A stretch of DNA of 64,000 nt, taken from positions 5,216,001 through 5,280,000 of the forward strand of contig OZ245365.1 of the NCBI GenBank assembly GCA_965226495.1, given 5' to 3'. Below, in pieces: positions 8,608-60,112 of this stretch. Position 1 is the stretch's first letter. Each line of letters begins with the position of its first letter. The notes under the pieces were generated by a model, which was not told the DNA's origin, made no database searches, and was given only the letters and a program-made list of their open reading frames with translations. The translations under genes were made by a program, and so were the position numbers. Origin of the DNA: Candidatus Marinacidobacterales bacterium (lineage in GTDB: Bacteria; Acidobacteriota; Vicinamibacteria; Marinacidobacterales; DATDRI01).

Positions 8608-8846
8608 GAGCTAAAGTCTTCGTACGGCTGAAGCCCTCCGTCCATGACCCGCAGGGCGAAACCATCCGGGGTGCCCTCGAGACCATGGGTTACCAAGGTG
8701 TCTCCGACGTACGCCAAGGCAAGTACTTCGAGATGTCTCTGGTTGCCTCTTCGCGGGAAGAGGCAGAGAGCCAGGTTCGCGAGATCGCGAACCGCGTTCT
8801 GTCGAACCCGGTCATCGAGACGTTCGAAGTGGAGATCCTAGACTGA
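8604..8846 (+). CDS. purS: FGAM synthase subunit PurS
   Basis: DPQG...VRQGKYFE...LSNPVIE; TTG start overlaps the purB stop. Confidence 0.95.
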   Translation: MRAKVFVRLKPSVHDPQGETIRGALETMGYQGVSDVRQGKYFEMSLVASSREEAESQVREIANRVLSNPVIETFEVEILD

Positions 8847-9538
8847 TGCCGCGCTTCGCGGTGCTCGTCTTCCCCGGTTCCAATTGTGAAGGGGACGTTC
8901 TCTACGCGCTACGGGATGTGCTCGGTCAAGAAGCGGAGCTGGTTTGGCACAAGGAAACTTCCCTCGATGGTTTCGACGCCGCCTTCCTGCCGGGAGGCTT
9001 CGCTCACGGTGATTATCTCCGGCCCGGTGCCATCGCGCGCTTTTCTCCGATCATGAAGTCGGTTGTCTCGATGGCTGAGGCGGGGAAACCCGTCATCGGA
9101 ATCTGTAACGGCTTTCAGGTCTTGATGGAGGCGGGGCTTCTTCCCGGCGCCATGCTGCGCAACCGGAGCCTTCACTACGTCTGCCGCTATGTGAATCTTC
9201 GCGTGGAAACCACGAAGTCCCCTCTCACCAATACCTGCACCGCAGGGGACGTGCTGCAAGTGCCGATCGGGCACGCCGACGGTAACTTCTTCGCCGACGA
9301 CTCCGAGCTCGAAGAGCTCGAGAAGCGAGGCCGTGTGATGTTCCGGTACTCGACGCCGAGCGGCGAGTTGACCGACGAGGCGAATCCCAACGGCTCGCTT
9401 AACCACATCGCCGGCATCGTGAGCACCGAAGGCAACGTGGTCGGGCTCATGCCACATCTCGATCGTTGCTACGAGCCTGAATTGGGCACCGATCATGGTC
9501 GTCGCCTCTTCCAGAGTCTCATCGCATCGGTCTCATGA
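8846..9538 (+). CDS. purQ: FGAM synthase glutaminase subunit PurQ
   Basis: [29 protein letters not shown]; MPHLDR in place of the usual MPHPER. Confidence 0.96.
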
Positions 9539-11754
9539 ACGTCTCTCAAAAGGATCTCCTCGAAACTCACAACCTGACCGAGGGCGAGTATCGGCAGATC
9601 GTCGAGAAGCTCGGGCGCGAACCCAACCTGACGGAGCTCGGCCTCTTCTCGGTCATGTGGTCCGAGCACTGCAGCTACAAGAGCTCCCGCATGCATCTGA
9701 AGCGACTCCCCACGAAAGGGCCGCGTGTGCTTCAAGGCCCCGGCGAGAACGCGGGCGTCGTGGATCTGGGACACGGACTCGCCGCGGTCTTTAAGGTCGA
9801 GTCCCACAACCACCCTTCTTTTATCGAGCCCTTCCAGGGCGCGGCGACCGGCGTGGGCGGCATTATTCGTGACATCTTTACGATGGGCGCACGTCCCGTC
9901 GCTTTGATGAACTCGCTCCGTTTCGGCCCCCTGTCGGTTCCCAAGAACCGCTCTCTGCTAGAAGGAGTTGTCGCGGGCATCGCGTCCTATGGGAACTGCA
10001 CCGGCATCCCGACCGTCGGTGGCGAAGTGGCTTTCGAAGACTGCTACAACCTCAACCCCTTGGTGAATGCGTTTTGTCTCGGGATCGCCCCCAAAGATCG
10101 GATCTTCCGCGCGCGCGCGGAAGGGCAGGGCAATCCAGTCTTTTATGTCGGCGCCAAGACTGGTAAGGATGGCATCCATGGCGCGACCATGGCGTCTGCC
10201 GAGTTCGATGAGGCGGCCGAAGAGAAGCGACCGACTGTTCAGGTCGGAGATCCCTTCATGGAAAAACTCCTCTTCGAGGCTTGCCTCGAGTTGATGAGCA
10301 CCGATGCGTTGGTCGCGATTCAGGATATGGGCGCCGCCGGACTGACCTGCTCGACCTCCGAGCTTGCGGCCCGCGGAGGCACCGGCATTGCGATCGATAT
10401 CGCCGACGTGCCCCAGCGGGAAAAGGGCATGACCCCCTACGAGATCATGCTGTCCGAGTCCCAGGAGCGGATGCTTCTCGTTGCCAAAGCGGGACGGGAA
10501 TCGGAAGTCGAGGCCATCTTCGACAAGTGGGACTTACATGCCGTCAAGATTGGAAGGGTCACCAGCGACGAAATGCTCCGCGTGCGCAATGGTGAAAAGG
10601 AAGTCGCCGTCGTGCCGTGCCGTGCCCTGGTCGAAGACGGTCCGATCTATGAGCGCCCCATGGAACGGCCTTCCTATCTCGACGAGGCGACGAAATTGGA
10701 TCTGAGCAGCGTTCCTGAACCAGAAGACACAGGCGCTGTGCTAGAACGGCTCCTCGCATCTCATGGTTTAGCCAATAAACATTGGATCTTCCAGCAGTAC
10801 GATCACATGGTGCAGAGCAACACCATCGTGATGCCAGGCTCCGACGCCGGTGTCATTCGTCTCAAGGGAACTCCGCTTGCCCTCGCGATGAGCCTCGACG
10901 GCAATGGTCGCTACGCCTATCTCGATCCCTATCTCGGTGGAGCGCTCGCGGTTGCCGAGTCCTGCCGCAACGTATCCGCCGCCGGAGCGACCCCCATTGG
11001 GGCCACCAACTGCCTCAACTTCGGAAGCCCGGAGAAACCCGCGGTCATGTGGCAGTTCGCTCGCGTCATAGACGGCATCACTGATGCCTGCACCGCACTC
11101 GGTATTCCCATCACCGGCGGCAACGTCAGCTTCTACAACGAGACCGAGGGCGAAAGTATCTACCCCACTCCGGTAGTAGGAACGGTGGGAATACTCGAAG
11201 ACAAGACGTGCCGGGTGAGTCATCATTTCAAAGGCCCCGGAGATTGGATCTACCTCGCGGGCGTAACCACCGACGAGCTAGGGGGCAGCGAGTACCTCAA
11301 GACCATCCACGGCCGGATCCAAGGGCTTCCGCCACGGCTCGATCTCGTTCAGGAAAAGGCGGTGCAAGCCTTTACTCGAGACGCGGCGGCCCGAAAGTGG
11401 CTTCGTTCCGCCCACGATTTGAGTGAAGGCGGGTTGGCCGTCGCGCTCGCGGAGAGTCTCTTTGGTCCCCTCGGTGAAACGGTCGGGGCCACCGTCTCTT
11501 TGGAATGCCCTGGTCGCACGGACGCATTGCTCTTCAGCGAAGGGACCAGCCGGATTCTCGTCAGCGTGGCTGCGAAGCATGCGGAAGAGCTCGAATCACT
11601 GGCGGAAGAACACGGTGTGGCTTTATCTCGCCTGGGAATCACCGGGGGGGAGCGACTCCGCGTGCAGATAAACGGCGTCGATGCCATGTCGCTCGAGATT
11701 TCCGAACTGCGGGAGGGATGGTGGTCATCCATAGAAAGGGACATGCAGCCATGA
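9535..11754 (+). CDS. purL: FGAM synthase subunit PurL (small type)
   Basis: [31 protein letters not shown] and GGNVSFYN motifs. Confidence 0.97.
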
Positions 11755-13154
11755 AGGATGGCTTCCACGACGAGTGCGGTGTCTTTGGGATCTTCTCCCA
11801 TCCTGACGCGGCACGACTCACCTATCTTGGTCTCTACGCACTCCAGCACCGCGGCCAGGAGGCAGCGGGGATGGTCACCTCCGCACCGGATGGGCTTCGC
11901 ATCAAGAAATCCAAGGGCTATGTCGCCGATGTTTTCAACGAGCAGGCCTTGCAAGAGCTCGAAGGCTCCGCCGCCATGGGACACGTTCGCTACTCGACCG
12001 CCGGGGAAAACTCCGCCGTCAATGCGCAGCCGCTACTCATCGATTGCAAGTTCGGCGAGATCGCGGTGTGCCACAACGGAAACCTGGTCAATGACCAGGC
12101 CCTCAGAAAGGACCTGGTGGACCGCGGATCCATCTTCCGCACCAACAGTGACACCGAAGTTATCTTGCACCTTTTCGCGAGATCGGATCAGAAGGGAGTA
12201 GAGGACGCTCTCCTAGACGCGCTACGTCCGTTGGAGGGAGCCTTCACCCTGCTCTTCATCACCAAGGAGGCTCTCTACGGCGTTCGCGATCCGCGAGGGT
12301 TCCGCCCGCTCATTATCGGAAAGCTGGGCGATAGCTACGTTCTGTGCTCCGAGACCTGTGCCCTGGACCTCATCGACGCGACCTACGTCAGGGAGGTGGA
12401 GCCTGGGGAGCTGGTGGTCATCGACAAGAACGGACTCCGATCGATCCGTCCATTCGCGACTGAACAACCCCGCCAATGCGTCTTCGAGCACGTCTACTTC
12501 TCCCGGCCGGACAGCGTTGTCTTCGGCCGAAGCGTCCACGTTTCTCGTATCGAGATGGGAAAGCTCTTGGCACAGGAGACAGCGGTCGATGCCGATGTCG
12601 TGGTGCCGGTGCCGGACTCCGGTGTGGTCGCGGCGGTGGGCTACTCGATGGCGTCCGGCCTACCCCTCGAGTTCGGGCTCATCCGCAACCACTATGTGGG
12701 TCGCACGTTCATCGAACCGCATCAATCCATTCGGCATTTCGGCGTCAAAGTGAAGCTCAACCCCGTCCGCTCTGTGCTCGAAGGACGGAGGGTGGTACTG
12801 ATCGACGACTCCATCGTGCGGGGAACCACCAGTCAGAAGATCGTGGGGATGGTGCGAAACGCCGGAGCTCGCGAAGTCCATCTTCGTGTTTCCTCCCCGC
12901 CCATCACCGGTCCCTGTTACTACGGCATCGACACCCCGGAGAAGAAGGACCTTATTGCCGCCACTCATTCCGTCGAGGAGATCCAAGAGTTCCTAGCCGC
13001 CGACAGCCTTGCCTACCTTTCCCACGGCGCGCTCATGGCCTCGGTCCAAAACGGTTCCGATCAATTCTGCTCCGCCTGCTTCAACGGCAACTATCCGGTT
13101 CCGCTTACCGACGAAGCCCTCGGACAAAGAAAGCTTTTCGAGAAGACTCGTTAG
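11751..13154 (+). CDS. purF: Amidophosphoribosyltransferase (intact copy)
   Basis: ATGA overlap with purL. Propeptide then CGVFG, LQHRGQE, HVRYST, HNGN, PRPP loop [11 protein letters not shown], and Fe-S cysteines. Confidence 0.97.
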
Positions 13155-13409
13155 TCGAGGCCCCACCGTCGGCGCATTCAAAACCTGCCTAGGGGGGGCT
13201 GGAAACGAAACTCGTTCCCATGCCACATCTGTGGCAGCGTCAACGAAGGAAAATCCGCAGGGATGATTGAGCATCACGATGTCGCGGTCCCGCAGATCTC
13301 GCTCATCGATGGGGAAAGAACTTCCCGATTGCGAGAATCCAGCGCTCGCAAAAACTCAAGTCTCGTCGCCGCATGATATCTTTCTGCGATTCGGTCGGAG
13401 TTCAAGAAC

Positions 13410-14075
13410 GTGCGCAAGTGGATCCCTAACCTGGTGACGGTGACCGGTATGGGGTGCGGTTTTGTTGCGATTCTGGTGGCCCATCGTGGTGCCGTCGATG
13501 CTTCTCTCTTCCTCATCCTGTGCGCAGTGATCTGCGACATCCTCGATGGCAAGCTCGCTCGGTTTCTGGGAGTCTCCTCGAGCTTCGGAGCCCAGCTCGA
13601 TTCGTTCTCCGACGTCATCGCCTTCGGCGTCGCGCCCGCGGTGATTCTATTCGAAGCATCGTTACACCGCCTAGGCTGGCTCGGCGCGGCCGCCGCCTTC
13701 CTCTTTCTCGCTATGTCGGCGGTCCGGCTCATCCGGTTCAATCTGGACGCATCCCTGCAAGAGCGACGGGATTTCTTCCGCGGTTTTTCCACGCCCACGG
13801 CGGCCCTGTATCTCATAAGCTTCATCGTAATGCGAGACCTGCTGCCGGCGTGGATAGGCGTTCTCTATGCCGCCGGTCTGGCGTTTCTCATGGTCTCCTC
13901 GCTCCCCGTCCCATCGTTCGAGGGAACCCGGCTCTCGCCCGCCTATCTCGTCGTCGCTCTGCTGAACACGCTGATACTTCTGCTCAGCCCCACCGTTTGG
14001 ACTTTCGCCTGGTGGAATTTATACGCGCTCTTCGTCCTATCTCTCGGCTACAAAAGGCGGCCGGCGGAAGGATGA
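13410..14075 (+). CDS. pssA: CDP-alcohol phosphatidyltransferase (PssA/archaetidylserine-synthase-like)
   Basis: IPNLVT start, DILDGKLAR-x8-G-x3-D-x3-D motif, RLIRFN and FxGF-TP. Confidence 0.85.
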   Translation: MRKWIPNLVTVTGMGCGFVAILVAHRGAVDASLFLILCAVICDILDGKLARFLGVSSSFGAQLDSFSDVIAFGVAPAVILFEASLHRLGWLGAAAAFLFLAMSAVRLIRFNLDASLQERRDFFRGFSTPTAALYLISFIVMRDLLPAWIGVLYAAGLAFLMVSSLPVPSFEGTRLSPAYLVVALLNTLILLLSPTVWTFAWWNLYALFVLSLGYKRRPAEG

Positions 14076-17000
14076 TCCTTCGGTGGCCCGTCAAAGACTC
14101 TAGACGCGTCATCCAGATGCTGGCTCAACTCAAACAAGCGGAGCCATGTGGGTATAACCCTCTCGAGAAATCGTTTCCTCTGGAACCGGTACAAGAGCGT
14201 GTACATGGGAAGCCGGCTCACCAGTAAATGCTGCAGCGAGAGCGTGAAGCCGCGCCGCCAGTCGCGCGCGTCGATCGAAGCTTCGACCTCTTCATCGAGC
14301 AACTGGCGATGAAGTGCTACGTAGTGCCCGAGCTCATCTTTCGTAGCAGCAGGTGAGAGCACGAAACAGAGGAGCTCGGCCAGATCGTGCTGCGGCGCTC
14401 CGAGCGTCGCGAGCTCCCAGTCATAGGCGCAGAGCTCGAGCCCGGCCCCGTTTCCGTGGCGAAAGGCGACGTTTCGGGAATTGAAGTCGTTGTGAATGAG
14501 GGTGCGTGGCATGCTCGTCAACTCCTCGGACCAGATGTCGACGTCGTCCACGGCTCGCTCTTGCGCCGCCACGAGCCCGTCTCCGGCCCAGTCTCGAAAC
14601 CAGGGACGCGCGTGCTCGGAAAGCGCTTGCCAGAGATCGCCCATCTCGTTCAAAGATGCGGAAGTTACGACGGGTCCCAGCCATTCTTGCCTTTCGAGCT
14701 CGGACTCGCGTCCATACCAGACCGAGTGGATCTTCGCGAGTCCCCGAATGGCGGCTTCCGTAGCAGCGCGTGACCAGCCATCTGCTTGGTCAGCGCTATC
14801 CAATAGCCAAAGCCCTTCCAGATCCTCAAGAGCGAGCGCCCAGAGCCCCTCGTCATCGTCGCGAACCGTGCCGTACAAGGCAGGCATGAAGTTTCGAAGC
14901 CGCGCGTCATCCTGCTCGTAAAGAGCCAGCTCTCGTCGATGACATAGCGTGAAGCTGAGCTTCCTCCCGAAACGATCGAAGAGCTCACCGAGACGGGTCG
15001 AGCACAGATCCGCCACGACCTGCGCCACGGCCAATACGTCGTCATCGGAGGGCTTCACCTTCAAGAACAAACGCAGTGTTCGCTCCTGCGCGTCGGACGT
15101 ACGGAATCGCGTCGTGGCGCGATAGAGGCCGGTCTCGCGCGTGCTGTACCAGGATGTTAGCTCGGTGAGAATGCTCTGCTCGACGCCCACTGGCTCGAGC
15201 TCGAGCTCGAGAATATCGAGGGAATCGTCGCCGAAATGCCGGCTGAGAACACTCTGGAGCCACTCGTCCACCGGGGCATCACGACCGTCACGGTCGCGGC
15301 GTCGAGCCGGCGCCACCAGAACACCACGATCGATGAACGACGTGTAAGCGCGATCGAGATAGCCGGGCCCGGAATCCGGGCAAGAGACGCGAAGACGTGC
15401 CAGCCGTCGATCGGTATTCTCCGTCAGGACCCGCGTCTTTCGGCAGTCCTCGAAGAGCTCGAGTGAAAAAACCTCTTGCCCGTCTTTCGCCGTCACTCGC
15501 TTGGACAAGAACGGCTGCAGATGATGGAGAGCGTGGTTCCGCGCGCTGGCACTTTCCTGAAGGCGGGACAACCACTCGCGATAGCCCGCGAGCTTCATCG
15601 GGTAGCCGAAAAGATTCATCCACAAGACCAGCTCGCGCCAGTGCCGCGGCTTCGGACTTCGAATGTGGTGGACGGCGAGAGCTCTCTCCTCCGGTTCTTG
15701 TGACAAGGCCACGACTGCCCGGCTCGCGTAGTCGACGGGACAGCCGTCGAGTTGCAGGTCGAGATCCGGGGCCATTTCCATCTCGATGCATCCTCTGACA
15801 AAACGCGAGAGGAAGTCGCTCTCGTTGCCGCGACCTCTGACATCGGAGCCCGTAAGCAGGGCGAGCCGATAAACGGATGCGCCGAGCCCGCGTTCGGAAG
15901 CTTCGCGAACCAGTGCTTCGGCCACGCACTTGCTCTCTGCGTAACCGAGCTGAAGATCTGGAAGGAAGGGCAGCACGTCGTCGACTTCGGCAAGCTCGCT
16001 CGCCCGCGTTGTGTAACAGACGCCGAGGGTCGAGACGAAGTGGAATCGCTTCGCCTTTCCGAGACAGGCCAATCTCAGGAGCTCCCGCGTGCCCAGAACG
16101 TTGACCTCACGCAAGTCGCGATACGGATAGACGAAATTGACCGCGGCGGCGTTGTGATAGATGGCGTCCGTTGTTTGCGCCAGCTCTTCGAACGCGTCGA
16201 GTCCTTCGCTCAAGTCTCCCTTCATGGGCACGATACGTCGCTCGAACGATGGACTCCACAGATCATGGGACTCGAGATTTCTTCGGAGGCGCTCCGAGCC
16301 GCCTTCCCCACGCACCAGGCAAACGATTTGCGCTCGAGTTTGCTCGAGAAGCTCTTTCAACAGATACGCTCCAAAGAATCCAGTGGCGCCGGTGAGAAGA
16401 ATCGAGCGCGGCTCGTCTCCCGAAATGACCCGCGGGGCGGGGCGAATGTCCTTCGGCAGACAGGTGTCCGCGAGCATCAGGGCGAGCTCAGAGCCCCTGG
16501 GCCTCGTCGAGCGACGCGCTCGCTGGCTGCCGGCGTTGCGGAGCTGGCCCTGCAATCGTTGCAGTGCTCCGGGCTCGAGAAGCTCCGCAATAGAAACATT
16601 CCGACCGACCCACCGCCCGATCGCCGTTTGAACCTCGACCACGCCGAGTGAATCCACGTAACGGGAGAGGGACGATCGAAGGTCGACCGATGCCAAGGGA
16701 GCACCGGAGAGCTGCGCGACCAGACTGCGGATCTTCGGTTCGATAGCATCGCTCTGGATCGCGTCGTCACCGTTCACGGAACGCGCGAGCATCTTCATTT
16801 TCCCGGCTGCGAAGGCGTCCCGGCAGGCCCAGCGCCTGAGCTTTCCGCTCGACGTCTTCAGTAGAGCCCGAGGCGGCACGAGGGCGATCGTGCCGAGCCG
16901 GAGCCCGTGACGCTCGAGGACCGCCGCTCGCAGAGATTGCATGATTTCAGAAGCGTATCGAGCTCGCTCCTCTTCGCTGGCGCTCATCATCGCCCGGTCC

Positions 17001-18499
17001 ACTTTGACCTCGGCGAGCACAGAGGCTTCCTCGCCATCGTCTCGAGACGTTCCAAATACGGCAACCCCGCCGCCTCGAACTCCGGGATGAGCCTCTTCGG
17101 CCGTCCACTCGATGTCACTCGGGGAGTAATTGACGCCGCGAACGATCAGAACGTCTTTCATTCGCCCCACGACGAAGAGCTCTCCGTCCAGGACGAAGCC
17201 AAGATCACCGGTGCGGAGAAAGGGACCTTCTTGCGTATCTTCCAGGACGGCACGAAACGTTCTCGTGCTCTCCTCGGGATCGTTCCAATAGCCTGCACAC
17301 ACACTTGGGCTTGCGAGCCATATCTCACCCACCTCGCCCGAGGCACAACGAGTGCGGTGCTCAGGGTCCGCGATCACAAGCTGGGTATCGCGATGAGGCT
17401 GCCCGCTTCCCACTCGAAGCACACCTTTCGCTGCATCGTTCGAAGGCGTGGCCTGGCCTTTTTCGAGGAGCTCCCGGTCCAGCTGGATCAGAACAGGCGA
17501 GTCCTCGTGCCTGCGGCTGGTGACGAGAACGGTGGACTCCGCGAGCCCGTAGACCGGATAAAAAGCCCGCCAATCGAAGCCACAGGGCCGGAACGCGTCC
17601 AGGAACGAGCAAAGCGTTTCCGCGCGCACCGGTTCTGCACCGTTATACGCTACGCGCCACGAGCGCAAATCCAGCGAGGCGCGCTCCGCTTTCGACGTCT
17701 TGCGGACGCAAAGCTCATAGGCGAAGTTCGGAGCGCCGCTGTTCGTCGCGCGATAACGTGAGATGGCGCTCAGCCACCGCAGAGGTTTCGTCAGAAACGC
17801 CCCCGGCGAAAATACATAAGCGGGAAAGCCGCTATAAAGAGGTTGCAAGATTCCGTCGATGAGCCCCATGTCGTGGTGCATCGGAAGCCACGAAACGGAA
17901 ACGCTACCGCGCTCGTTGCCTTCGGCCTCGGCGCCGTGAGCCAGGTTGTGCATCAGGTTTCCATGACTCACCATGACGCCGCGCGGGGCGGCGGTGGAGC
18001 CGGACGTGTATTGGAGAAACGCCAGTTGCCGCGCGTCGAGCGGTGTCTCCGTCCAAGCGCCCGCGAGCTCCGTCGGCACTGCATTGGACTCGACGAAGCG
18101 GACTGAAGAGCCCATTTCCGCACGAACGCTCTCGGGAAGCTCGTCGTCGCTGAGGATGACCTCGACCGCGGCGTCGCGGGCGATACCGCGTAAGCGCGGC
18201 AAGCTCTCTTGGCGGAGCACGGGGCTCGGTCGGTAGGCGGGCACCGCCACCGCACCCGCGTAGAGGCATCCGAGGAAGGCGCCGATGAACTCCAAGCCGC
18301 TATCGAGCGTCAAGAGAACGCGCTGTCCTTCGGCGCCAGCCTCCTGGAGCTTGGCCGCAATCGCGCGGGATCTTCTGTCGAGCTGGGCATAGGTGAAGCT
18401 CGCGCCCTCGACCTCGCCGTCGTCGAGAAAGGTGTAGGCAGGCTTGTCGGGAGAAGACAGCGACCGGCGCCGCAATACATCGACGATGGTGACTGTCAC
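14048..18499 (-). CDS. Multidomain fatty acyl-AMP ligase - ACP - thioester reductase - APH/choline-kinase-like phosphotransferase
   Basis: FAAL: AFLQYTSGST, YGLAES, FLRTGDLG, KTSSGKLRR. ACP: YVDSL with Ser617. Reductase: LLTGATGFFG, GYAESK. Kinase: LFLKVK, RELALY, LIHNDFNSRN, AYDWE. Confidence 0.9.
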   Translation of the reverse strand: MTVTIVDVLRRRSLSSPDKPAYTFLDDGEVEGASFTYAQLDRRSRAIAAKLQEAGAEGQRVLLTLDSGLEFIGAFLGCLYAGAVAVPAYRPSPVLRQESLPRLRGIARDAAVEVILSDDELPESVRAEMGSSVRFVESNAVPTELAGAWTETPLDARQLAFLQYTSGSTAAPRGVMVSHGNLMHNLAHGAEAEGNERGSVSVSWLPMHHDMGLIDGILQPLYSGFPAYVFSPGAFLTKPLRWLSAISRYRATNSGAPNFAYELCVRKTSKAERASLDLRSWRVAYNGAEPVRAETLCSFLDAFRPCGFDWRAFYPVYGLAESTVLVTSRRHEDSPVLIQLDRELLEKGQATPSNDAAKGVLRVGSGQPHRDTQLVIADPEHRTRCASGEVGEIWLASPSVCAGYWNDPEESTRTFRAVLEDTQEGPFLRTGDLGFVLDGELFVVGRMKDVLIVRGVNYSPSDIEWTAEEAHPGVRGGGVAVFGTSRDDGEEASVLAEVKVDRAMMSASEEERARYASEIMQSLRAAVLERHGLRLGTIALVPPRALLKTSSGKLRRWACRDAFAAGKMKMLARSVNGDDAIQSDAIEPKIRSLVAQLSGAPLASVDLRSSLSRYVDSLGVVEVQTAIGRWVGRNVSIAELLEPGALQRLQGQLRNAGSQRARRSTRPRGSELALMLADTCLPKDIRPAPRVISGDEPRSILLTGATGFFGAYLLKELLEQTRAQIVCLVRGEGGSERLRRNLESHDLWSPSFERRIVPMKGDLSEGLDAFEELAQTTDAIYHNAAAVNFVYPYRDLREVNVLGTRELLRLACLGKAKRFHFVSTLGVCYTTRASELAEVDDVLPFLPDLQLGYAESKCVAEALVREASERGLGASVYRLALLTGSDVRGRGNESDFLSRFVRGCIEMEMAPDLDLQLDGCPVDYASRAVVALSQEPEERALAVHHIRSPKPRHWRELVLWMNLFGYPMKLAGYREWLSRLQESASARNHALHHLQPFLSKRVTAKDGQEVFSLELFEDCRKTRVLTENTDRRLARLRVSCPDSGPGYLDRAYTSFIDRGVLVAPARRRDRDGRDAPVDEWLQSVLSRHFGDDSLDILELELEPVGVEQSILTELTSWYSTRETGLYRATTRFRTSDAQERTLRLFLKVKPSDDDVLAVAQVVADLCSTRLGELFDRFGRKLSFTLCHRRELALYEQDDARLRNFMPALYGTVRDDDEGLWALALEDLEGLWLLDSADQADGWSRAATEAAIRGLAKIHSVWYGRESELERQEWLGPVVTSASLNEMGDLWQALSEHARPWFRDWAGDGLVAAQERAVDDVDIWSEELTSMPRTLIHNDFNSRNVAFRHGNGAGLELCAYDWELATLGAPQHDLAELLCFVLSPAATKDELGHYVALHRQLLDEEVEASIDARDWRRGFTLSLQHLLVSRLPMYTLLYRFQRKRFLERVIPTWLRLFELSQHLDDASRVFDGPPKDHPSAGRLL

Positions 18500-19260
18500 A
18501 GCGCCGCCTCCTTCCCCGCCTGCTCAATCCGGGCTGCGTCCAGATAGCCGACGAAGCGCTCTCGAATCGCCGCTTTGTTCTCCTCGAGCTCCTCCAGCCG
18601 CCAGCTCTCTGTGTGGATAGGTGCATGGACGTGCACGTGCACCGTCCCCGGAAACACGCCGAATCCCTTTCCCGGATTGATCTCGGCCGGGATTTCGATG
18701 AACAGAGGAACGATAGGGGCTTTGAGATTGGTCGCTAAGTGAAACGTTCCCTTGTTGAACGGCCCGATCTGGCCCGTCGTAACGCGCGTTCCTTCTGGGC
18801 TCAGGAAGACGGACTCCCCGGTTCGGCGAAGAGTGCGCTCGGCCGCCTGGAAGCAGCGAATGCGCTTGTCAGGCATCGATTGAGGCGGCGTAAAGAAAGT
18901 GCCGATGAGCCACGCCATGAGCCCAAGAGGTGGGAGAAGCAAGAATCTGCGCTTCATAAAAAAGCGGGTGTTGGGAAGCCCGAGCGCAATGAGTATGAAC
19001 AGATCGATGGTCGAAGTGTGGTTCGCAACGTAAACCTTCTGCGATGTCGGAAAGGGATGTTCCTGGTGCACGACGAGACGGATGCCCCCGAGCCACAACA
19101 TCGTGTGGCCAACCACTTTCGCAATCACTTCCTGGCAAAAGCGGCGAGTGCGAAATAGCGTTGCGATCGAGATCGCGAGCATGAGAGCTCCCGCAAGTGT
19201 CATCAGGAGCATCGATGCGGCGAAGAGGAGCACCGAGCGCAGAAAATTAGGTTTCGCCAT
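18496..19260 (-). CDS. Lysophospholipid (PlsC-like) acyltransferase
   Basis: NHTSTID (HX4D), SPEGTR and FNKGTF motifs; 4-nt overlap with the FAAL gene. Confidence 0.9.
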   Translation of the reverse strand: MAKPNFLRSVLLFAASMLLMTLAGALMLAISIATLFRTRRFCQEVIAKVVGHTMLWLGGIRLVVHQEHPFPTSQKVYVANHTSTIDLFILIALGLPNTRFFMKRRFLLLPPLGLMAWLIGTFFTPPQSMPDKRIRCFQAAERTLRRTGESVFLSPEGTRVTTGQIGPFNKGTFHLATNLKAPIVPLFIEIPAEINPGKGFGVFPGTVHVHVHAPIHTESWRLEELEENKAAIRERFVGYLDAARIEQAGKEAAL

Positions 19261-20218
19261 TCGACTTCCTCTTTCTGCAGACAACGGTCTGCATCGCGAG
19301 ATTCAATTGCTTTTCGAACGCTAGAACGGGCAACGTCAAGATCTGCCCCAGGACATAGACATAGCCCCACTTCTGCAAGTCCAGTCCTCTGCCTTTCAAG
19401 AGCTTGAAGGCCGCTCCCGCGAACAAATAGAAGTAGGCGGGGAAAGCTCCGTAGGGCATGTAGTCCACGATGTCGAACCCCGCCCGCTCCATGAGCTTGA
19501 AGAGGTGTTCCTTGTCGTAGAGCGCCGTGTGTTGGGGCGCCTGGAGACCGGGCCACCGCTCGCGGAACAAGCCAAAAGTGATGCTATCGAGACGAGGCAC
19601 TTCGACAATGAAGTGGCCGTCATCCTTCATCACAGAGCGCGCCGTCTCGAGCGTGCGCAGCGGGTCGTAGTCGTGCTCGAGGAAATGCCACATCGTGATG
19701 AGATCGAAACTCCCCCCGCGAAACTCCTGTTCGTAGAAGAGGCCGCAGTGAAAATCGATGTGCTCGAATCCTTCGGCGCCCTCGAAATCCTTGAAGTCGA
19801 CGCCCGTCACACGAGCATCGTGTACGACTCGCATCTTGTTCAGGAAGGTTCCAGCACCACAGCCCACGTCGAGAATCTCGTTCGGATTACCCGGCTTCAG
19901 GTATGGCCGGACGATCTGCTCTTTCTTCCGATCGAGCTGGTCCATGACGTAGTTGTAGACGGGTGTCAGAGAGCCCCAGTCTCTCTTCTTCCGGTGCGCG
20001 ATGTACTCATCGTCGTAATAATCCTTGATGTGTTCGACGTCGATCCGCGGATGCTGATACGCGAGGCCGCATTCGGCGCAGCGGACGAAATGGAACCACC
20101 CAGGCTTTCCCGTGAGATCCTCCTGGGCGCTCACGAACGGTTCGCGCGCAGCGCTCGAGCAGTAATAGCAGCTCACCGGCTCGAAGATGGATGCGTCCGG
20201 AACGATCGTTGCGTTCAC
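19247..20218 (-). CDS. Class I SAM-dependent methyltransferase with N-terminal Zn ribbon
   Basis: CYYC...CAEC, ILDVGCGAG, MWHFLEH; GTGA overlap with the UbiA-like stop. Confidence 0.88.
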   Translation of the reverse strand: MNATIVPDASIFEPVSCYYCSSAAREPFVSAQEDLTGKPGWFHFVRCAECGLAYQHPRIDVEHIKDYYDDEYIAHRKKRDWGSLTPVYNYVMDQLDRKKEQIVRPYLKPGNPNEILDVGCGAGTFLNKMRVVHDARVTGVDFKDFEGAEGFEHIDFHCGLFYEQEFRGGSFDLITMWHFLEHDYDPLRTLETARSVMKDDGHFIVEVPRLDSITFGLFRERWPGLQAPQHTALYDKEHLFKLMERAGFDIVDYMPYGAFPAYFYLFAGAAFKLLKGRGLDLQKWGYVYVLGQILTLPVLAFEKQLNLAMQTVVCRKRKSNGET

Positions 20219-21012
20219 GCACGACCTCCGTAAGCACTCAACAGAACCAAGAAAGACAGCATGAAAGCCCCGCGACCCAGGCGAGCACAATCGTTCCTCC
20301 GCCGAAATTGCAGAAAGCTCGTGGCCGCGAGCGCGAGGGCGAGGCCACTGAGAGAGAACAGGACGACGCTAGAGACTTCGTTCGTGAGGGACACCCAGGC
20401 CGCGAGAACCCAGATAGTCAGATCGGCAGCTACGACGACCTTGATCCCCTTGAACTGATGTGTCCTTTTGTCGTGCAGCGGTTCGTAGAGGGCGAACGTG
20501 AAGAACACGAGGGCCAGCGTCCCGAGCAGGAGCTGGTCGACCGGCGCCGACGCGAGTCGCGCACCGACGTACGCAAAGAACGGGTACTTGAGAAGCACGA
20601 TGTGGTACGCCACGGCGCGCGGCGCACGGTCGGCCAGCCAGCGGTACCAGAGGAAAAAGAACAGAAGCGCGACGAGATAAAGGAGCTGCAAATCCCGCTG
20701 TCCCAGTAGAAGGAGCAGAACGACTCCCACCCCAGCAACCCACAACCTGTGAAACGAAGTGAGGGAGCTGACGCGGGAAAGCACGCGCTCGGGAAACGCG
20801 ACACGATCGGTCTTCACGTCACTCAGATCGTCCCAGAGGCGGAACTGAAAGAGGAGAACCACGACCGTAACCAAAGCTCTTGGACGAGCCGCGGCATCGC
20901 CGGCCAAAAGGCTCGGAATCGCGAGAAACAGAGTGACCGGTACGAACAGCGTCAACGGGAACCGCTCGCGGCGGTATCTCAGAATCGACGAATCACTCGA
21001 CCAGATGGACAC
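20215..21012 (-). CDS. UbiA-superfamily prenyltransferase-like membrane protein (RERFP subfamily)
   Basis: Multiple TM helices; Asp-rich motif FRLWDDLSDVKTD...PERVL (analogue of NDxxDxxxD...RPL) and a second acidic motif YEPLHD. Confidence 0.75.
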   Translation of the reverse strand: MSIWSSDSSILRYRRERFPLTLFVPVTLFLAIPSLLAGDAAARPRALVTVVVLLFQFRLWDDLSDVKTDRVAFPERVLSRVSSLTSFHRLWVAGVGVVLLLLLGQRDLQLLYLVALLFFFLWYRWLADRAPRAVAYHIVLLKYPFFAYVGARLASAPVDQLLLGTLALVFFTFALYEPLHDKRTHQFKGIKVVVAADLTIWVLAAWVSLTNEVSSVVLFSLSGLALALAATSFLQFRRRNDCARLGRGAFMLSFLVLLSAYGGRA

Positions 21013-23539
21013 GACCCAAATCTCCGTCGACCTCGAGCGCGCGACCGTCCGTGATCAGACGCATGGCGTCCTTGACGCCTACGACCGAGGGAATACCGAA
21101 CTCGCGCGCCAGAATCGCTCCGTGGGAGAGGAGCCCACCTCGCTCCAGGACGAGCCCTTTGATGAGAGGAAACGCAGGACCCCAGCCTGGATCCGTTTGC
21201 CGCGTCACGAGGACGTCACCGCCTCGCAAACGCTGGCACTCCGTCACGTCGTGGAGGATCGCAGCCGGTCCTCGCACCTTGCCGGTGCCTGCACCGATAC
21301 CCACGAGAGTCTGCGGGTCTGCGGCGCCCGCGGCCCGAGCCTCCTCATCGAGCCCGTTCTCATCAAGGTGCTCGCCGACGGGCAACACGAAATGCTCCGG
21401 CGGCTCGATGCCGCCGAGCCGCTGGTGCTCGCTCTTGCGCTTAGCGATCTCGGGAAACCTCTCGCCTCCGGAGAGGAAACGATCAAGCTCCTGCCACGTC
21501 AGAAAGAACGCGTCGTCCGGGTGCTTTAACGTGCCCTGTGCGACGAGCTTCTCTCCGATGGCGAGCACAATCCGGCGGCAGCGACTGTACAGAAGTGCCT
21601 GCTTGAGACGGGCCCGTTCGCGTAGCGAGATCGCCCGGTGTGTCCACGAGAGGAGTCGAGGGAAAACCAGGGACTTCTTCAGGCTGAGCTGCGCGCGCAC
21701 GCGCTCGGTCGCCGCGACGCGACGCGACGCCTGGTCAGCTAGCGTCTCGCGCGGTGCGCGCGCCTCCGAGGCGACGTAAGGCTTCAAGAGGTCGAGCAAG
21801 CGCTCGGGGTTTTCCTGAAAGCTGGGCACCGTCATCATCAACTCTCCCGAGCAGCGGAATCCCCAGCGTTCCAGATATGCGTCGACGGTACGGTGAAATG
21901 GAGCGAAACGCTCTTCGTTTTCCAAAGCGCGAAGGATCTCGCCGCTGTCTTTGTTCCGAAACAGCGCCGCGAGCTCCGAATCCTGGCGAACGAGCCGCGA
22001 TAGCTCCCAGAGGTCCAACGCCGGTTGAGCACTGACGACATCGGGAAGCCCCTTCAACAGATCCCCAAGTTGGCGGTCGTCTCCGCCAAGAAGTGATTTG
22101 AGCGCGCCGCTCGTTACCATCGCGGCCGCATCGGCGAGAGATGCCCCGAGCCACCGGAAGCGACGAATTTCGAGAAACGCTCGTAGAGCGCGATGCTGGT
22201 CTCTAAGGGAGCGATCTCCCAGACGATCCGGGTGCCATTCGCTCGCGAAGCGATCAACCGTCATTTCGAACTCGTGGACGCGTCGGTCGAAGCCGACATA
22301 GAGCCAGCTCGTCTTGAGGCAGATCCACGCAAGCTCCATGGCCTGCCGCAATCTCGAATCTTTCTCGACCGAAGTCTCGCCTTCGGCACCATCCCGCCGC
22401 GTACCCACGAACTCGTCGAAAGAGCGGGTCAACCACTCACCGAAAGGAACCGCGCGGAGCACTCGGTGAACGTTTGTGACGTTGTAGTAGATCCGAGCTG
22501 CGTGGACGCCGATGATGTTTCGGAAAGCGCCGTCCGCGGCGTCGAGGCGTCGCTGGGTAATCCCGAATGCACGGCCGAGGTTTCGAAAATAGTGCTCGTA
22601 GCCGACGGCAGCGACGGAGTATAGAAACGGCGTCACTGGTCCGGGGAAATTCTCGTTGATGTTCGCGTTCGACCAGACGACACGCTCTGCTACCCGAGCG
22701 TTTCGAGTTGGAACCGTGATCGGCCTCGACTGCACGAGGTAGACGCGTCCTTCGGGATCGATCGTCCATTCGATGTCCTGAGGTCCACCGAATCGTAGCT
22801 CGAGCTCGAGTCCGAACCTTCCGAGCTCTTCGAGCTGTTTCTCACTAAGGAGTGCGTCACGGTCTTTGCCCGGAGGTTTGGTCATCCGAAGGCAGCTCAG
22901 GTCCTGCCGCCTCAACGAGAAACGACCCGGGTCGGCGCGGCCCGACACCAGAGCCTCACCGGCACCGTAAACGTATTCACCGAGGAGCTCTTCCGATGCC
23001 GAGGGCGCTCTCGTGAACAAGACGCCGGAGATCGACGCGTCAATTTGTTGCTGGACAATGACGCCCACGCCTCGCAGTCGCGCGCCGCGCGCGAGCTGGT
23101 AGGAAAGCGAGCGCTCCGACCAGGCGGACGCCCAACATGCTTTGAGCGCTTGCTCGAGTCCGTCCGCGCTCACGACGTCGGGAAACGAGTCAAGGAGGCC
23201 GGCGTAGGACGACTCGCTCCCGTCCTCGCCGACCCCGGAGCTTCGTACGATGACTCTCTGCCCCTCGAGATGCTCTTCCCAGAACCGGACGAGCTCCTCG
23301 CGCAGCGCGAGCGGCAGCCTCGAGCCGAGAAGGACCTCTCGAATCTCGGCCCCGTTCGCTACCGAATCGAGCGATCTCTCCAGCATGAATGCCTCGAGCA
23401 CTTCGTGAGGTACGACGAATCCCGGAGGCACTGGCAAGCCTTCGCCCAACATTCGAGAAAGGCGGGCCGCCTTTCCGCCCACGCGCTCGACATCGCATGC
23501 GTCCGAGAGCGGAAGAAGTCCCGCGACGCTCAAGCCCAC
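20993..23539 (-). CDS. PEP-utilising dikinase, rifampin-phosphotransferase-like architecture (ATP-grasp / substrate domain / C-terminal His swivel)
   Basis: GGKAARL, VRSSGVGEDG..SYAG, QDIEW, QSRPIT; C-terminal TDPGW...GGLLSHGAILAREFGIP. No pyruvate-binding barrel. Confidence 0.9.
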   Translation of the reverse strand: MGLSVAGLLPLSDACDVERVGGKAARLSRMLGEGLPVPPGFVVPHEVLEAFMLERSLDSVANGAEIREVLLGSRLPLALREELVRFWEEHLEGQRVIVRSSGVGEDGSESSYAGLLDSFPDVVSADGLEQALKACWASAWSERSLSYQLARGARLRGVGVIVQQQIDASISGVLFTRAPSASEELLGEYVYGAGEALVSGRADPGRFSLRRQDLSCLRMTKPPGKDRDALLSEKQLEELGRFGLELELRFGGPQDIEWTIDPEGRVYLVQSRPITVPTRNARVAERVVWSNANINENFPGPVTPFLYSVAAVGYEHYFRNLGRAFGITQRRLDAADGAFRNIIGVHAARIYYNVTNVHRVLRAVPFGEWLTRSFDEFVGTRRDGAEGETSVEKDSRLRQAMELAWICLKTSWLYVGFDRRVHEFEMTVDRFASEWHPDRLGDRSLRDQHRALRAFLEIRRFRWLGASLADAAAMVTSGALKSLLGGDDRQLGDLLKGLPDVVSAQPALDLWELSRLVRQDSELAALFRNKDSGEILRALENEERFAPFHRTVDAYLERWGFRCSGELMMTVPSFQENPERLLDLLKPYVASEARAPRETLADQASRRVAATERVRAQLSLKKSLVFPRLLSWTHRAISLRERARLKQALLYSRCRRIVLAIGEKLVAQGTLKHPDDAFFLTWQELDRFLSGGERFPEIAKRKSEHQRLGGIEPPEHFVLPVGEHLDENGLDEEARAAGAADPQTLVGIGAGTGKVRGPAAILHDVTECQRLRGGDVLVTRQTDPGWGPAFPLIKGLVLERGGLLSHGAILAREFGIPSVVGVKDAMRLITDGRALEVDGDLGRVHLVE

Positions 23540-24114
23540 CGCCGCTTCACACCCATCGAGAACAACGCCGCGCTAAACAAGAGATGAATCCCGGGACCGA
23601 TGAGAAGGACGAACAACCACATCTTCCAGGGCGTGGGAACCACGAAGCTCATCACCACCAGCATTCCCACGATCGAGTCCAACCGGTCGCCAAAAAAGCA
23701 AACGAGTCGGGCCAGACGGCTGCGCGGTGCACAGCCCGGTGGCACGCTGAGCTGTCGTTTCAGGAAGGAGTTGGGCATTTCCCCGAGCATGAAGCCGAAG
23801 CTCGCGAGCCCTCCAAGAGCAAAGAACTGGAAACCGGTGAGCGGCCAAATGCCGTCGGTCCACGTGGGATGCAAGGTAGCGAGCAAGTGATGGAGGCCTG
23901 CGAACGCGAGGGCCGCCGCGGGCACCATGACGATGAAGCCTCGGGGCGTTTTATTGTCGCCGAAGATACGCTTTCCGCGAAAGCTTCGTCCGCCGTCGAG
24001 CGGCGTCGTGAAACGCCGCGACAATGCCGTTCTCAGCCAGATTGTTTGAACAATGCCGGCAAGCGTGAAAGCGACGACGACAAAGAGCGCGCACGAGAGC
24101 GGGTCGAGATGCAT
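23530..24114 (-). CDS. CDP-archaeol synthase (CarS/DUF46)-like cytidylyltransferase
   Basis: PLDGGRSFRGKRIFGDNKTPRGF, GEMPNSFLKRQLSVPPG and DRLDS are CarS-family motifs. ATG 24114 overlaps the desaturase stop (TGATG). Confidence 0.85.
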   Translation of the reverse strand: MHLDPLSCALFVVVAFTLAGIVQTIWLRTALSRRFTTPLDGGRSFRGKRIFGDNKTPRGFIVMVPAAALAFAGLHHLLATLHPTWTDGIWPLTGFQFFALGGLASFGFMLGEMPNSFLKRQLSVPPGCAPRSRLARLVCFFGDRLDSIVGMLVVMSFVVPTPWKMWLFVLLIGPGIHLLFSAALFSMGVKRRWA

Positions 24115-25076
24115 CACACCTCGGAGCTGGACTGGGTTCGATTCTGGAACATGAAGACTTCTGCGGGTAGCCGTCGGGCGGCGAGAATCCAGCGCCACCA
24201 GACGGCAATATTCTTGGGCTGGTAGTCGACACGGGAAAGGAAGTAGCCTGGAATCTGTGGATGGATGTGGTGAAGCTCGTGCGCGTCTACGTTGGCCAGA
24301 ATCCATTGCGAGAACCAACGCGGGAAGCGAAGTGAGCGCGTGAACACCTCCTGCTCGCGAGCCGAGAAAGGTCGGACCGATTCGTTGCCGCTGACCTTCA
24401 TCGGAACGTGGGTGTGCTGACTCAGAATGAGGGAGTCGATAAAAACCATACTCAGCAGAACTCCGACGCCGAGACTGCGCAGCAAGGTCGAGAACCCAAA
24501 GGCGTAGATGACGCCCACATAAAGGGCGGCAAGTCCCAGAATGTTCACCGCGATGCGCTTTCGAAGGGGAGAAGCGGGAAAGAGTTTTTGCAGCCGCGGC
24601 CAGTTCCAGAAGTTATTGATGCGGTAGACGAGAACGAAGATGGGAATCCAGAATCGCCAGCAAACGTTCATCAACACACGTTCTGCACGAGAGAGCTCTC
24701 GCGGCACGAGCGTCGCCGTCGTGGGATCCAGATCCTGCCAACCAGTCCAGTGGTGATGCTGGTTGTGGATGGCCGTCCAGGCGTGAAAAGGGATGAAGCT
24801 GAAAACGCCCGCGATTTGGCCCGCGAGGTGGTTCCACCGAGGGGTTCGAAAGAGAATTCCATGCCCGCATTCGTGGAGGAGCACAAACCACTGCACGAGC
24901 GCAAGAGCCAGGAGAGCTTGCCCGACGACCCAAGCAATGGGATGGGGGCGCCCTGCGAGGGCGATTCCGGCAACCGTTAACAGGAGGCAACCGAAGAAGT
25001 AGAGTCCTCCGAACGTGTCGCGAGGCCGGAGGTGGATGACCTCGGCAGGTAGCGGGGCGTTCAATTCCAATGACAT
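24114..25076 (-). CDS. Membrane fatty acid/lipid desaturase
   Basis: His boxes HECGH, HNQHH and HELHH; TM segments; SD AAGGAGAGG. Confidence 0.9.
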   Translation of the reverse strand: MSLELNAPLPAEVIHLRPRDTFGGLYFFGCLLLTVAGIALAGRPHPIAWVVGQALLALALVQWFVLLHECGHGILFRTPRWNHLAGQIAGVFSFIPFHAWTAIHNQHHHWTGWQDLDPTTATLVPRELSRAERVLMNVCWRFWIPIFVLVYRINNFWNWPRLQKLFPASPLRKRIAVNILGLAALYVGVIYAFGFSTLLRSLGVGVLLSMVFIDSLILSQHTHVPMKVSGNESVRPFSAREQEVFTRSLRFPRWFSQWILANVDAHELHHIHPQIPGYFLSRVDYQPKNIAVWWRWILAARRLPAEVFMFQNRTQSSSEV

Positions 25077-52561: not shown

Positions 52562-52630
52562 GCGGGCTCGCGCCTTGAAGTTTGCCTGTGCACGGCGGCA
52601 TATCTGACGGGCTTGGAAGGAGAACTGACG

Positions 52631-53929: not shown

Positions 53930-53960
53930 CGCCTGAAGGCAGAAGGCAGCTGCAACGTCA

Positions 53961-56108: not shown

Positions 56109-56115
56109 GGTAGCC

Positions 56116-56975: not shown

Positions 56976-56985
56976 CGACGGCACG

Positions 56986-57210: not shown

Positions 57211-57211
57211 C

Positions 57212-58105: not shown

Positions 58106-58120
58106 CGGGGCTCGGATCTT

Positions 58121-59974: not shown

Positions 59975-60031
59975 TAAATTAGATCTTTAGAGAGCCCACG
60001 CCTCCCTCCCTAGTGACTCGATTTTGGGCAT

Positions 60032-60071
60032 TGAGCCACTGAGCCACTTGGCCGCTTAGCCGCTTAGCCGA
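60032..60071 (+). repeat. Five degenerate 8-bp tandem repeats
   Basis: tgagccac tgagccac ttggccgc ttagccgc ttagccga. Confidence 0.6.
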
Positions 60072-60112
60072 TGATAAGAGACGAAACCCACCCGACGTTG
60101 CGGTCTCTAGAT

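Follow-up and report, generated by a model that had tools for sequence, protein, structure and literature searches.

Enzymes of the A-T-R type, such as MxaA, the mycobacterial Nrp and GPL proteins and the carboxylic acid reductases (CARs), carry an adenylation domain (A), a carrier (T) and a reductase (R) of the short-chain dehydrogenase/reductase (SDR) type in one chain, and they stop at the reductase. Here we describe a gene with the same three parts, the carrier being putative, at positions 14048 to 18499 of a 64,000-nucleotide stretch of DNA (the window) from Candidatus Marinacidobacterales bacterium (assembly GCA_965226495.1, contig OZ245365.1, positions 5,216,001 to 5,280,000). In contrast to the A-T-R enzymes, its product continues beyond the reductase for about 420 residues that appear to form an active kinase (K), and its adenylation domain is of the fatty acyl-AMP ligase (FAAL) type, not the CAR type. 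An assignment as a carboxylic acid reductase was considered and rejected, the equivalog NF041592 giving 153 bits against a cut-off of 1300 with a match that covers the R part only. We regard the protein as an A-T-R enzyme extended by a putative product-modifying kinase, widespread but uncharacterised.

The genes that accompany it recall parts of two lipid pathways. The archaeal ether-phospholipid pathway uses a UbiA-fold transferase, a CarS-family enzyme and a CDP-alcohol phosphatidyltransferase, counterparts of which are co-encoded here. The archaeal donor is an isoprenoid diphosphate, whereas the donor we propose would be a reduced, twice-phosphorylated fatty acid; moreover, no GGGP-synthase homologue was seen here, and the CarS match in the window lies below the equivalog cut-off (NF003114, 64.6 bits against 148). 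In the phytol salvage of plants and cyanobacteria, the phytol kinase VTE5 and the phytyl-phosphate kinase VTE6 act ahead of UbiA-family prenyltransferases. The logic is the same, from lipid alcohol to monophosphate, diphosphate and UbiA-type transfer, but salvage starts from an allylic isoprenoid alcohol, its kinases are unrelated CTP-dependent membrane enzymes, and no reductase is fused to them.

A third comparison is offered by the myxobacterial elb system. Alkyl ether lipid synthesis in aerobic bacteria is only partly known, and according to the part of the published account available to us (PMC9131029) the myxobacterial elb and AGPS routes are incompletely understood. ElbD of Myxococcus xanthus, implicated there in alkyl ether lipids, combines fatty-acid activation, a carrier, a FAR-type reductase and an AGPAT-like acyltransferase. 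Fatty-acid activation and a reductase are common to ElbD and the window system, where the carrier is putative and the AGPAT-like acyltransferase is a separate gene. As far as the same part of the account describes them, ElbD has its reductase at the N-terminus and carries no kinase, its neighbours are a HAD-like protein (elbB) and NAD-dependent epimerases (elbE), and the operon includes no dikinase, UbiA, CarS or CDP-alcohol (CDP-OH) transferase. Measured against that description, we rejected an ElbD-type enzyme as the identity of the window protein: the two differ in which domains they have and in what order, a separate gene encodes the acyltransferase, and no HAD or epimerase gene adjoins.

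The window gene and its domains are laid out as follows (aa, amino acids; ACP, acyl carrier protein).

14048..18499, minus strand: FAAL-ACP-thioester reductase-kinase gene, a single unbroken frame of 1483 aa
16775..18499, minus strand: fatty acyl-AMP ligase domain, aa 1-575 (Pfam and NCBIfam)
16574..16735, minus strand: putative carrier protein, aa 589-642 (weak Pfam PP-binding match; Ser617 within DSL)
15374..16402, minus strand: thioester reductase domain, aa 700-1042 (TIGR01746)
14099..15271, minus strand: kinase domain of the APH/choline-kinase fold, about aa 1077-1467 (Pfam, alignment and AlphaFold model)

The 1483-aa protein is a real four-domain enzyme, comprising FAAL, putative carrier, thioester reductase and kinase. 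At its N-terminus, Pfam recognizes AMP-binding at aa 11-405 (E 6e-62) and the DIP2-like C-terminal AMP sub-domain at aa 449-571. The best whole-domain NCBIfam matches of the first 570 residues are fatty-acid--AMP ligase families (PRK05850, E 5e-129), with 431 bits for the PRK05850 FAAL against 281 bits for the best CoA-ligase family, both scores being below the curated whole-protein cut-offs. Consistent with this, the nearest solved structures are FAALs, namely 7r7g (E 2e-139), 3kxw and FadD32, and the motifs YTSGST at 164 and SSGK with Lys553 are invariant in 15 homologues. With an ANL core, these motifs and a closer relation to FAALs than to acyl-CoA synthetases, the adenylation domain is predicted to be of the FAAL type. 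The PP-binding match of the carrier is weak (E 0.049, 14.3 bits against a Pfam cut-off of 20.8); D616-S617-L618, which includes the phosphopantetheine serine Ser617, is invariant in 15 of 15 full-length homologues, and PF00550 is present in most ACP-R-K relatives among the matches listed. The reductase domain scores 288.4 bits with TIGR01746, above the cut-off of 213.35, and matches Pfam NAD_binding_4 at aa 702-929 (E 2.5e-54). It contains TGATGFFG at 703-710 together with Tyr853 and Lys857, and T703, G704, T706, G707, G710, Y853 and K857 are invariant across homologues. The score, the TGxTGxxG Rossmann motif and the catalytic Tyr-x3-Lys mark it as a thioester reductase domain.

The domain that follows matches Pfam APH at aa 1206-1377 (37.8 bits, cut-off 23.2) and EcKL at aa 1196-1403. 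We aligned window residues 1060-1483 with 41 homologous kinase regions; in these 42 domains the catalytic-loop His, Asp and Asn and the metal-binding Asp (His1336, Asp1338, Asn1343 and Asp1360) are invariant, and the strand-3 Lys and helix-C Glu (Lys1147 and Glu1190) nearly so. An AlphaFold model of residues 1060-1483 built with that alignment reached a pLDDT of 91.3 and a pTM of 0.90. Its top matches in the PDB are all small-molecule kinases of the APH/choline-kinase type, including putative APHs, YtaA, PsiK, Rv3168, choline/ethanolamine kinases, macrolide kinases and a 25-hydroxysteroid kinase, with a probability of 1.00, identities of 10-17% and target-normalised template modelling (TM) scores of 0.41-0.58 among the top 13. 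A search of the ESM Atlas returned only unnamed APH/EcKL clusters. The domain thus belongs to the APH/choline-kinase family (PF01636), scoring above the cut-off and possessing the bilobal fold, the Lys-Glu pair, HxDxxxxN and the metal-binding Asp. As to its phosphoryl acceptor, the fusion partners and gene neighbours are what point to a candidate.

An earlier note, made from the letters of the window alone, had held that the reductase is not terminal and that an APH/choline-kinase fold follows it in the same frame. Pfam, NCBIfam and the uninterrupted frame bear out the first point; the alignment, the model and the PDB matches bear out the second and show the catalytic apparatus to be intact. 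The motifs cited there lie at 1336 (HNDFNSRN), 1360 (DWE) and 617 (the carrier Ser, in DSL 616-618). The note had also named a missed stop, giving a fusion absent from homologues, as what would overturn its claim, and this has been ruled out. The frame is unbroken, and a 1481-aa protein from another record is 100% identical to the window protein. Fifteen homologues with 38-85% identity share all four domains at full length, and S617, TGxTGxxG, Y853, K857, K1147, E1190, H1336, D1338, N1343 and D1360 are kept in 15 of 15, which excludes a missed stop or a frameshift. Since, in addition, reductase-kinase proteins number in the hundreds and come from many phyla, the idea that an assembly or annotation error (a lost stop, or a frameshift joining two genes) created the fusion was rejected; no evidence in its favour turned up, and we give it a negligible chance.

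We examined the size of the family in two ways. A search with the kinase region, limited to proteins of 815-2596 aa, returned 341 matches. Counting the Pfam domains of the 120 listed, we found AMP-binding, reductase and kinase together in 15, a reductase (mostly with PP-binding) and no AMP-binding in 87, and an HMG-CoA reductase (HMGR) domain instead in 18. A profile of the 42 kinase domains was also run against 1.84 billion representative proteins and matched 4407 representative clusters at E<=1e-3, 1195 at <=1e-10 and 512 at <=1e-30. The best 150 representatives were classified by phmmer with the domains of the window and the HMGR domain of another locus (L003, below) as queries. An SDR-type reductase precedes the kinase in 77 of them (72 R-K, 3 FAAL-R-K, 1 FAAL-ACP-R-K and 1 ACP-R-K, a single-sequence query being insensitive to the carrier domain), HMGR does so in 29, and 44 show the kinase only. 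The FAAL-bearing form is therefore a minority, 4 of the best 150, most being (ACP-)R-K or HMGR-K, a point absent from the earlier note.

In the source records these proteins bear generic names: "thioester reductase domain-containing protein", "hydroxymethylglutaryl-CoA reductase" or "phosphotransferase", the HMGR-kinase fusions being named plain HMG-CoA reductases. Examples of the latter, 774-910 aa long with the kinase at the C-terminus, are L003:8480-11212 (Gammaproteobacteria), L033:8321-10948 (Kosakonia), L039:8852-11176 (Flavobacteriaceae), L012:8732-11221 (Ca. Entotheonella) and L019:8816-11239 (Streptomyces). The earlier note had not recognised the architecture as a characterised one, and a full-text search, confined to journals outside subscription, found no description of a thioester reductase-kinase or HMGR-kinase fusion, of natural fatty alkyl diphosphates or of the gene cluster described below. 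The accessible part of the lipocone paper (PMC12419801) contains only a neighbourhood of HMGR with a GHMP kinase, which is a different thing, and the accessible part of a sponge ether-lipid preprint only elb-type clusters.

What, then, does the kinase phosphorylate? Among solved structures the R domain comes closest to the terminal reductase of MxaA (4u7w, E 3.5e-72), followed by a type I PKS R domain (8v1x), the R domain of M. tuberculosis Nrp (4dqv) and carboxylic acid reductases. The R domains of MxaA and Nrp are alcohol-forming, reducing the thioester twice (four electrons in all) to a primary alcohol. HMG-CoA reductase, the fold of which is unrelated to that of the R domain, performs the textbook four-electron reduction of a thioester to a primary alcohol, and HMGR-like reductases act on CoA thioesters. 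The HMGR-K loci have no carrier domain and encode a separate AMP-binding enzyme nearby; SDR-type loci have the FAAL that activates the acid, and the carrier, either within the fusion or next to it. Each layout is compatible with a sequence from acid to thioester, alcohol and phosphate ester. From this shared acid-to-phosphate logic, which is our main argument, we infer that the kinase acts on the released alcohol. Taking homology, fusion partners and neighbours together, we consider it probable that the kinase phosphorylates the alcohol product of the reductase. The putative conversion of acid to alcohol to alkyl phosphate that the earlier note proposed is backed by the MxaA-like R domain, by HMGR-K in 29 of the 150 representatives and by the neighbouring enzymes of lipid phosphates.

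The same evidence bears on a different assignment, in which the reductase would release an aldehyde and the kinase would act on some other hydroxyl, for example that of a polar head-group alcohol in a Kennedy-like route. Choline and ethanolamine kinases do share the fold, a cytidylyltransferase-family protein and a CDP-alcohol phosphotransferase adjoin, and ElbD of Myxococcus is itself proposed, in the part of the report available (PMC9131029), to stop at the aldehyde. Set against this, 106 of the 150 best representatives join a single kinase family to one or other of two unrelated thioester reductases, which would be difficult to account for if the kinase used some unconnected substrate. CarS-family enzymes, moreover, use lipid phosphates and not soluble phospho-alcohols, and MxaA, the nearest solved R domain, is an alcohol former. 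We find a Kennedy-like role improbable.

Additional evidence for phosphorylation of the fatty alcohol comes from the genes around the fusion. The fusion gene is the last of an operon of tightly packed or overlapping genes on the same strand, which the earlier note had not mentioned, and a conserved operon of lipid genes offers a likely fate for an alkyl phosphate. The genes are given below, together with a convergent neighbour.

18496..19284, minus strand: PlsC/AGPAT-like acyltransferase (Pfam Acyltransferase, E 1.2e-21; TIGR00530 domain)
19247..20290, minus strand: SAM-dependent methyltransferase (Methyltransf_23, E 1.4e-23)
20215..21012, minus strand: UbiA-superfamily intramembrane transferase, 265 aa (Pfam matches of orthologues; AF2 fold)
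20993..23539, minus strand: dikinase resembling rifampin phosphotransferase (RPH), PigC and PEP synthase, 848 aa (PPDK_N and PEP-utilizers mobile domain)
23530..24318, minus strand: CarS-like (CDP-archaeol-synthase family) membrane protein (Pfam CarS-like, 48.4 bits against a cut-off of 22)
24114..25076, minus strand: membrane fatty-acid desaturase family protein (FA_desaturase, E 1.5e-24)
13410..14075, plus strand: CDP-alcohol phosphatidyltransferase (Pfam CDP-OH_P_transf, E 4e-17, 63.4 bits against 22)

The GTG start of the fusion gene, preceded by the Shine-Dalgarno GGAAGGAGG, overlaps the stop of the preceding gene as GTGA. Likewise, the probable start of the CarS-like protein is Met69 at 24114, the ATG of which overlaps the desaturase stop as TGATG. 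These overlaps indicate that the operon is translationally coupled.

The dikinase carries an ATP-grasp domain and, with His808 in GGLLSHGAILAREFGIP, a swivel His domain; the phosphohistidine motif GGLLSH(808)GAILAREFGIP is kept. Its layout of ATP-grasp, central domain and swivel His is shared with rifampin phosphotransferase, PigC and RedH, and its top PDB matches are 5fbs and 5hv1 (E 1e-64), which we take to be Listeria rifampin phosphotransferase. Against NCBIfam, its scores for Rph, PigC, RedH and PEP synthases fall far short of the equivalog thresholds (for Rph, 287 bits where 999 are required).

The 265-aa protein has about six hydrophobic segments in a simple scan. A motif, FRLWDDLxDxxxDRxxHPER, is common to the orthologues at the same position, with D61, D62 and D69 invariant and D65 conserved in at least 90% of sequences, and Pfam UbiA matches 7 of 11 aligned orthologues (best E 1.8e-12). 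Superposed over its whole length, the AlphaFold model (pLDDT 85.1) matches the UbiA-family structures ApUbiA, DGGGP synthase and AfUbiA with TM-scores of 0.6-0.69, and it also superposes on a membrane phosphoribosyltransferase. The membrane fold and the Asp-rich motif of the NDxxDxxxD type identify it as a member of the UbiA superfamily.

By Pfam the CarS-like protein is a family member, and a CarS function is putative. The CDP-alcohol phosphatidyltransferase family is marked by DG(x)2AR(x)8G(x)3D(x)3D, and the translation of 13410-14075 displays the signature DxxDGxxARx8GxxxDxxxD; with a Pfam score above the cut-off as well, it is a member. This gene is convergent with the fusion gene, the two coding regions overlapping by 28 bases (14048-14075), and tblastn relates its product to the copies of loci L030 and L033. 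The methyltransferase is 50% identical to the copy in a Flavobacteriaceae cluster.

We scanned genomes for the same surroundings and found at least 80 loci, 42 of which (L001-L042) have a full-length kinase match; 25 of the 42 are well flanked, with at least 5 kb on both sides. Neither the genome of the window nor those of its near relatives are among the loci. Neighbours were counted by tblastn with proteins of the window and of loci L003, L014, L030, L033, L039 and L042 as queries. A reductase immediately precedes the kinase in 41 of the 42 loci, of the SDR type in 12 and of the HMGR type in 29. The other genes were found near the kinase as follows.

RPH-like dikinase: 25 of 42 loci; 18 of the 25 well-flanked loci
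AMP-binding: 24 of 42; 16 of 25
UbiA-like: 23 of 42; 17 of 25
CarS-like: 19 of 42; 12 of 25
CDP-OH transferase (within 10 kb): 14 of 42; 9 of 25
PlsC: 11 of 42; 7 of 25
Methyltransferase: 11 of 42; 7 of 25
Desaturase: 9 of 42; 6 of 25

The full order of the window (desaturase, CarS, RPH, UbiA, methyltransferase, PlsC, FAAL-ACP-R-K) is also found in Vicinamibacterales (L013 and L029, and partly L005), Pyrinomonadaceae (L014), Gemmatimonadaceae (L021, and partly L020) and an unclassified metagenome-assembled genome (MAG; L027). In L005, L013, L020 and L029 the kinase is followed by a CDP-OH transferase homologue encoded on its own strand. The core recurs with both reductase types and in several phyla. 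In Flavobacteriaceae (L039 and L041) the same genes are rearranged around an HMGR-K fusion, and in marine Gammaproteobacteria (L003, L004, L007, L008 and L010) and Kosakonia sacchari (L033) the lipid genes, comprising UbiA-like, HMGR-K, dikinase, AMP-binding, CDP-OH transferase and CarS-like, run in one direction.

Taking these genes as a set, we propose the following route. The FAAL would adenylate a long-chain fatty acid and load it on Ser617 of its own carrier, the reductase with NAD(P)H would convert the thioester via the aldehyde to a primary fatty alcohol, and the C-terminal kinase with ATP would turn this into a fatty alkyl phosphate. The RPH-like dikinase would then move the beta-phosphate of ATP via His808 to the alkyl phosphate, giving an alkyl diphosphate, from which the UbiA-fold membrane enzyme would transfer the alkyl group to an acceptor, most simply glycerol phosphate (or a lysolipid), with formation of an ether bond. 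The PlsC-like enzyme would acylate the free hydroxyl, the CarS-like enzyme would produce a CDP-activated lipid, and the CDP-alcohol phosphatidyltransferase would attach the head group, the desaturase and the methyltransferase tailoring the chain. We modelled the order of steps on the archaeal sequence of DGGGP synthase, CarS and CDP-alcohol transferase and on phytol salvage. That FAAL-ACP-R-K makes an alkyl phosphate which the products of the operon use is, as a whole, the best explanation we have, and we put its chances at about even; the full route through an alkyl diphosphate and UbiA-type transfer we hold to be doubtful.

The presence of CarS-like and CDP-OH transferase genes, both conserved with the kinase, would also suit lipids that contain no glycerol. 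Here the CarS-like enzyme would turn the alkyl phosphate into a CDP-alkanol and the CDP-alcohol transferase would form a single-chain alkyl-phospho-X, with the dikinase and the UbiA-like protein acting elsewhere, so that an awkward saturated alkyl diphosphate donor is sidestepped. Such a scheme gives no role to the RPH-like and UbiA-like genes, which at 25 and 23 of the 42 loci are commoner than CarS (19) and CDP-OH transferase (14), and the PlsC-like enzyme needs a hydroxyl to acylate, and an alkyl-phospho head group may or may not provide one. We judge it unlikely.

The structural matches of the UbiA-like protein bear on yet another use of the alkyl phosphate, as a carrier lipid. Natural sugar-bearing alkyl phosphates are known, and the mycobacterial phosphomycoketide plays a part like that of a polyprenyl phosphate. 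The UbiA-fold protein would then add a phosphoribosyl or other activated group, in the manner of decaprenyl-phosphate phosphoribosyltransferase, and its model does match the membrane-bound phosphoribosyltransferase 8j8j/8j8k (TM 0.55-0.61). The best TM-scores are nonetheless those to DGGGP synthase (6m31/7bpu, 0.68-0.69), no glycosyltransferases were seen among the neighbours scanned, and the CarS-like, CDP-OH transferase and PlsC genes are left unexplained. We consider a carrier-lipid role very improbable.

Several points weigh against our preferred reading, in which the fatty alcohol is phosphorylated and passed to the enzymes of the operon. Firstly, sequence does not separate a two-electron from a four-electron reductase, and all substrates, likewise the order of steps after the kinase, are ones we infer. 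Secondly, the two types of fusion may bear less independent witness than their number suggests. In a FastTree phylogeny of kinase regions with 106 rows (105 reductase-bearing representatives and the window; the 44 kinase-only rows and one representative with a kinase match of <300 residues were left out), all HMGR-linked kinases group in a single clade; the reductase partner changes once on this tree, where 200 shuffles of the labels averaged 25.4 changes. The two types therefore appear to be two old lineages of one kinase family and not repeated fusions, which weakens the argument from convergence. Thirdly, the kinase stands alone in 44 of the best 150 representatives; many of these proteins are short and may be fragments, and most stand-alone matches are on contigs of 1-4 kb. 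In a Bdellovibrionales MAG (L037, 3773-11128) a locus with the operon order of the window ends in a stand-alone 376-aa kinase, and no reductase was found within that locus. Fourthly, 6 of the 25 well-flanked loci are without any lipid genes, namely L019, L023, L028 and L032 (Streptomyces/Kitasatospora), L025 (Actinomadura) and L006, and a seventh, L024 of Actinomadura, has only a weak, distant AMP-binding match. Finally, the UbiA-like copy of the window has no direct Pfam match, and the Foldseek E-values of its model are weak (2e-3 to 6e-2). The main chemical objection concerns the donor: the UbiA-family donors we know of are all allylic or anomeric diphosphates, and a saturated primary alkyl diphosphate donor would have no chemical precedent in this fold. 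A hypothetical 2-enoyl substrate would yield an allylic alcohol and remove the objection.

In Streptomyces tendae, one of the loci without lipid genes (L028:7132-11915), the HMGR-K gene has a GH3-type adenylating enzyme on one side and a thymidylate-kinase-like protein on the other, and DUF6182 is encoded upstream; the flanking pair could offer an alternative means of activating an acid and of adding a second phosphate. Transport genes, either MMPL with a LolA-like protein or ABC, flank the HMGR-type clusters of Gammaproteobacteria and Kosakonia. A LolA-like protein, an unknown 423-aa protein and an MMPL protein precede the cluster at L003:1979-6492, and HlyD and an ABC-2 transporter do so at L033:4371-7353 (Kosakonia). 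The position of such genes ahead of the clusters suggests that the product of the HMGR-type clusters is exported to the envelope. Another conserved protein, some 400 aa long and unmatched in Pfam, is encoded between the dikinase and the AMP-binding gene at L033:13500-14729; with its homologues it occurs in 11 of the 42 loci, all of them HMGR-type except L001 (SDR-type), where the match is weak.

The conserved cluster points to an undescribed bacterial lipid pathway and looks built for an unusual membrane lipid, possibly an ether-linked one made by a route parallel to the archaeal one. Which pathways give rise to the soil branched tetraethers that serve as climate proxies is still under debate. 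In the most far-reaching form of this idea, it would encode a previously unrecognised bacterial ether-lipid route mirroring that of archaea, with fatty alkyl diphosphates, UbiA coupling to glycerol phosphate and CDP activation by a CarS homologue. Given its presence in Vicinamibacteria, in Pyrinomonadaceae (Acidobacteria subdivision 4) and in Gemmatimonadota, the cluster could then be the missing oxygen-independent step for soil alkyl-glycerol ethers, including precursors of branched glycerol dialkyl glycerol tetraethers, with the desaturase and methyltransferase supplying mid-chain methyl branches. We offer this as a speculation that is more likely wrong than right by a wide measure. Were our reading true, a single polypeptide delivering fatty alkyl phosphate would establish a new committed intermediate of bacterial lipid metabolism, and the divide between archaeal and bacterial lipids would be blurred from the bacterial side. 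As a compact biocatalyst, the enzyme could also serve to make alkyl phosphates, and perhaps alkyl diphosphates if the dikinase is added. The cluster is carried by non-pathogenic bacteria that are in culture (Kosakonia sacchari SP1, Aestuariivivens insulae, Arhodomonas sp. AD133 and Hyalangium rubrum), which makes the hypothesis directly testable.

Two further reading frames at the edges of the cluster were considered as members and rejected. An open reading frame of 183 aa at 13274-13825 (minus strand), a candidate for the downstream gene, has no family match, is rich in Arg, Ala and Ser and runs antisense to the CDP-OH transferase; it is probably not a gene. The arylesterase/SMP-30 (SGL)-like beta-propeller gene at 25171-26229 (minus strand), just upstream, has a counterpart in 0 of the 42 loci. 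Rfam had no match in the window, and scans for promoters (1 promoter-like site against a mean of 1.9) and terminators (16 terminator-like sites against 14.1) did no better there than on shuffles. Purine genes at 7300-13154 (plus strand), comprising a purB-like lyase, purQ, purL and a purF-like amidotransferase, abut the lipid cluster. The PurL encoded here shares 94% identity with a partial protein assigned to Vicinamibacteria, and its other named matches are from Vicinamibacteria/Vicinamibacterales and Acidobacteriota. The G+C content of the window is about 0.60 and climbs from about 0.57-0.60 to 0.62-0.65 at 52001-64000.

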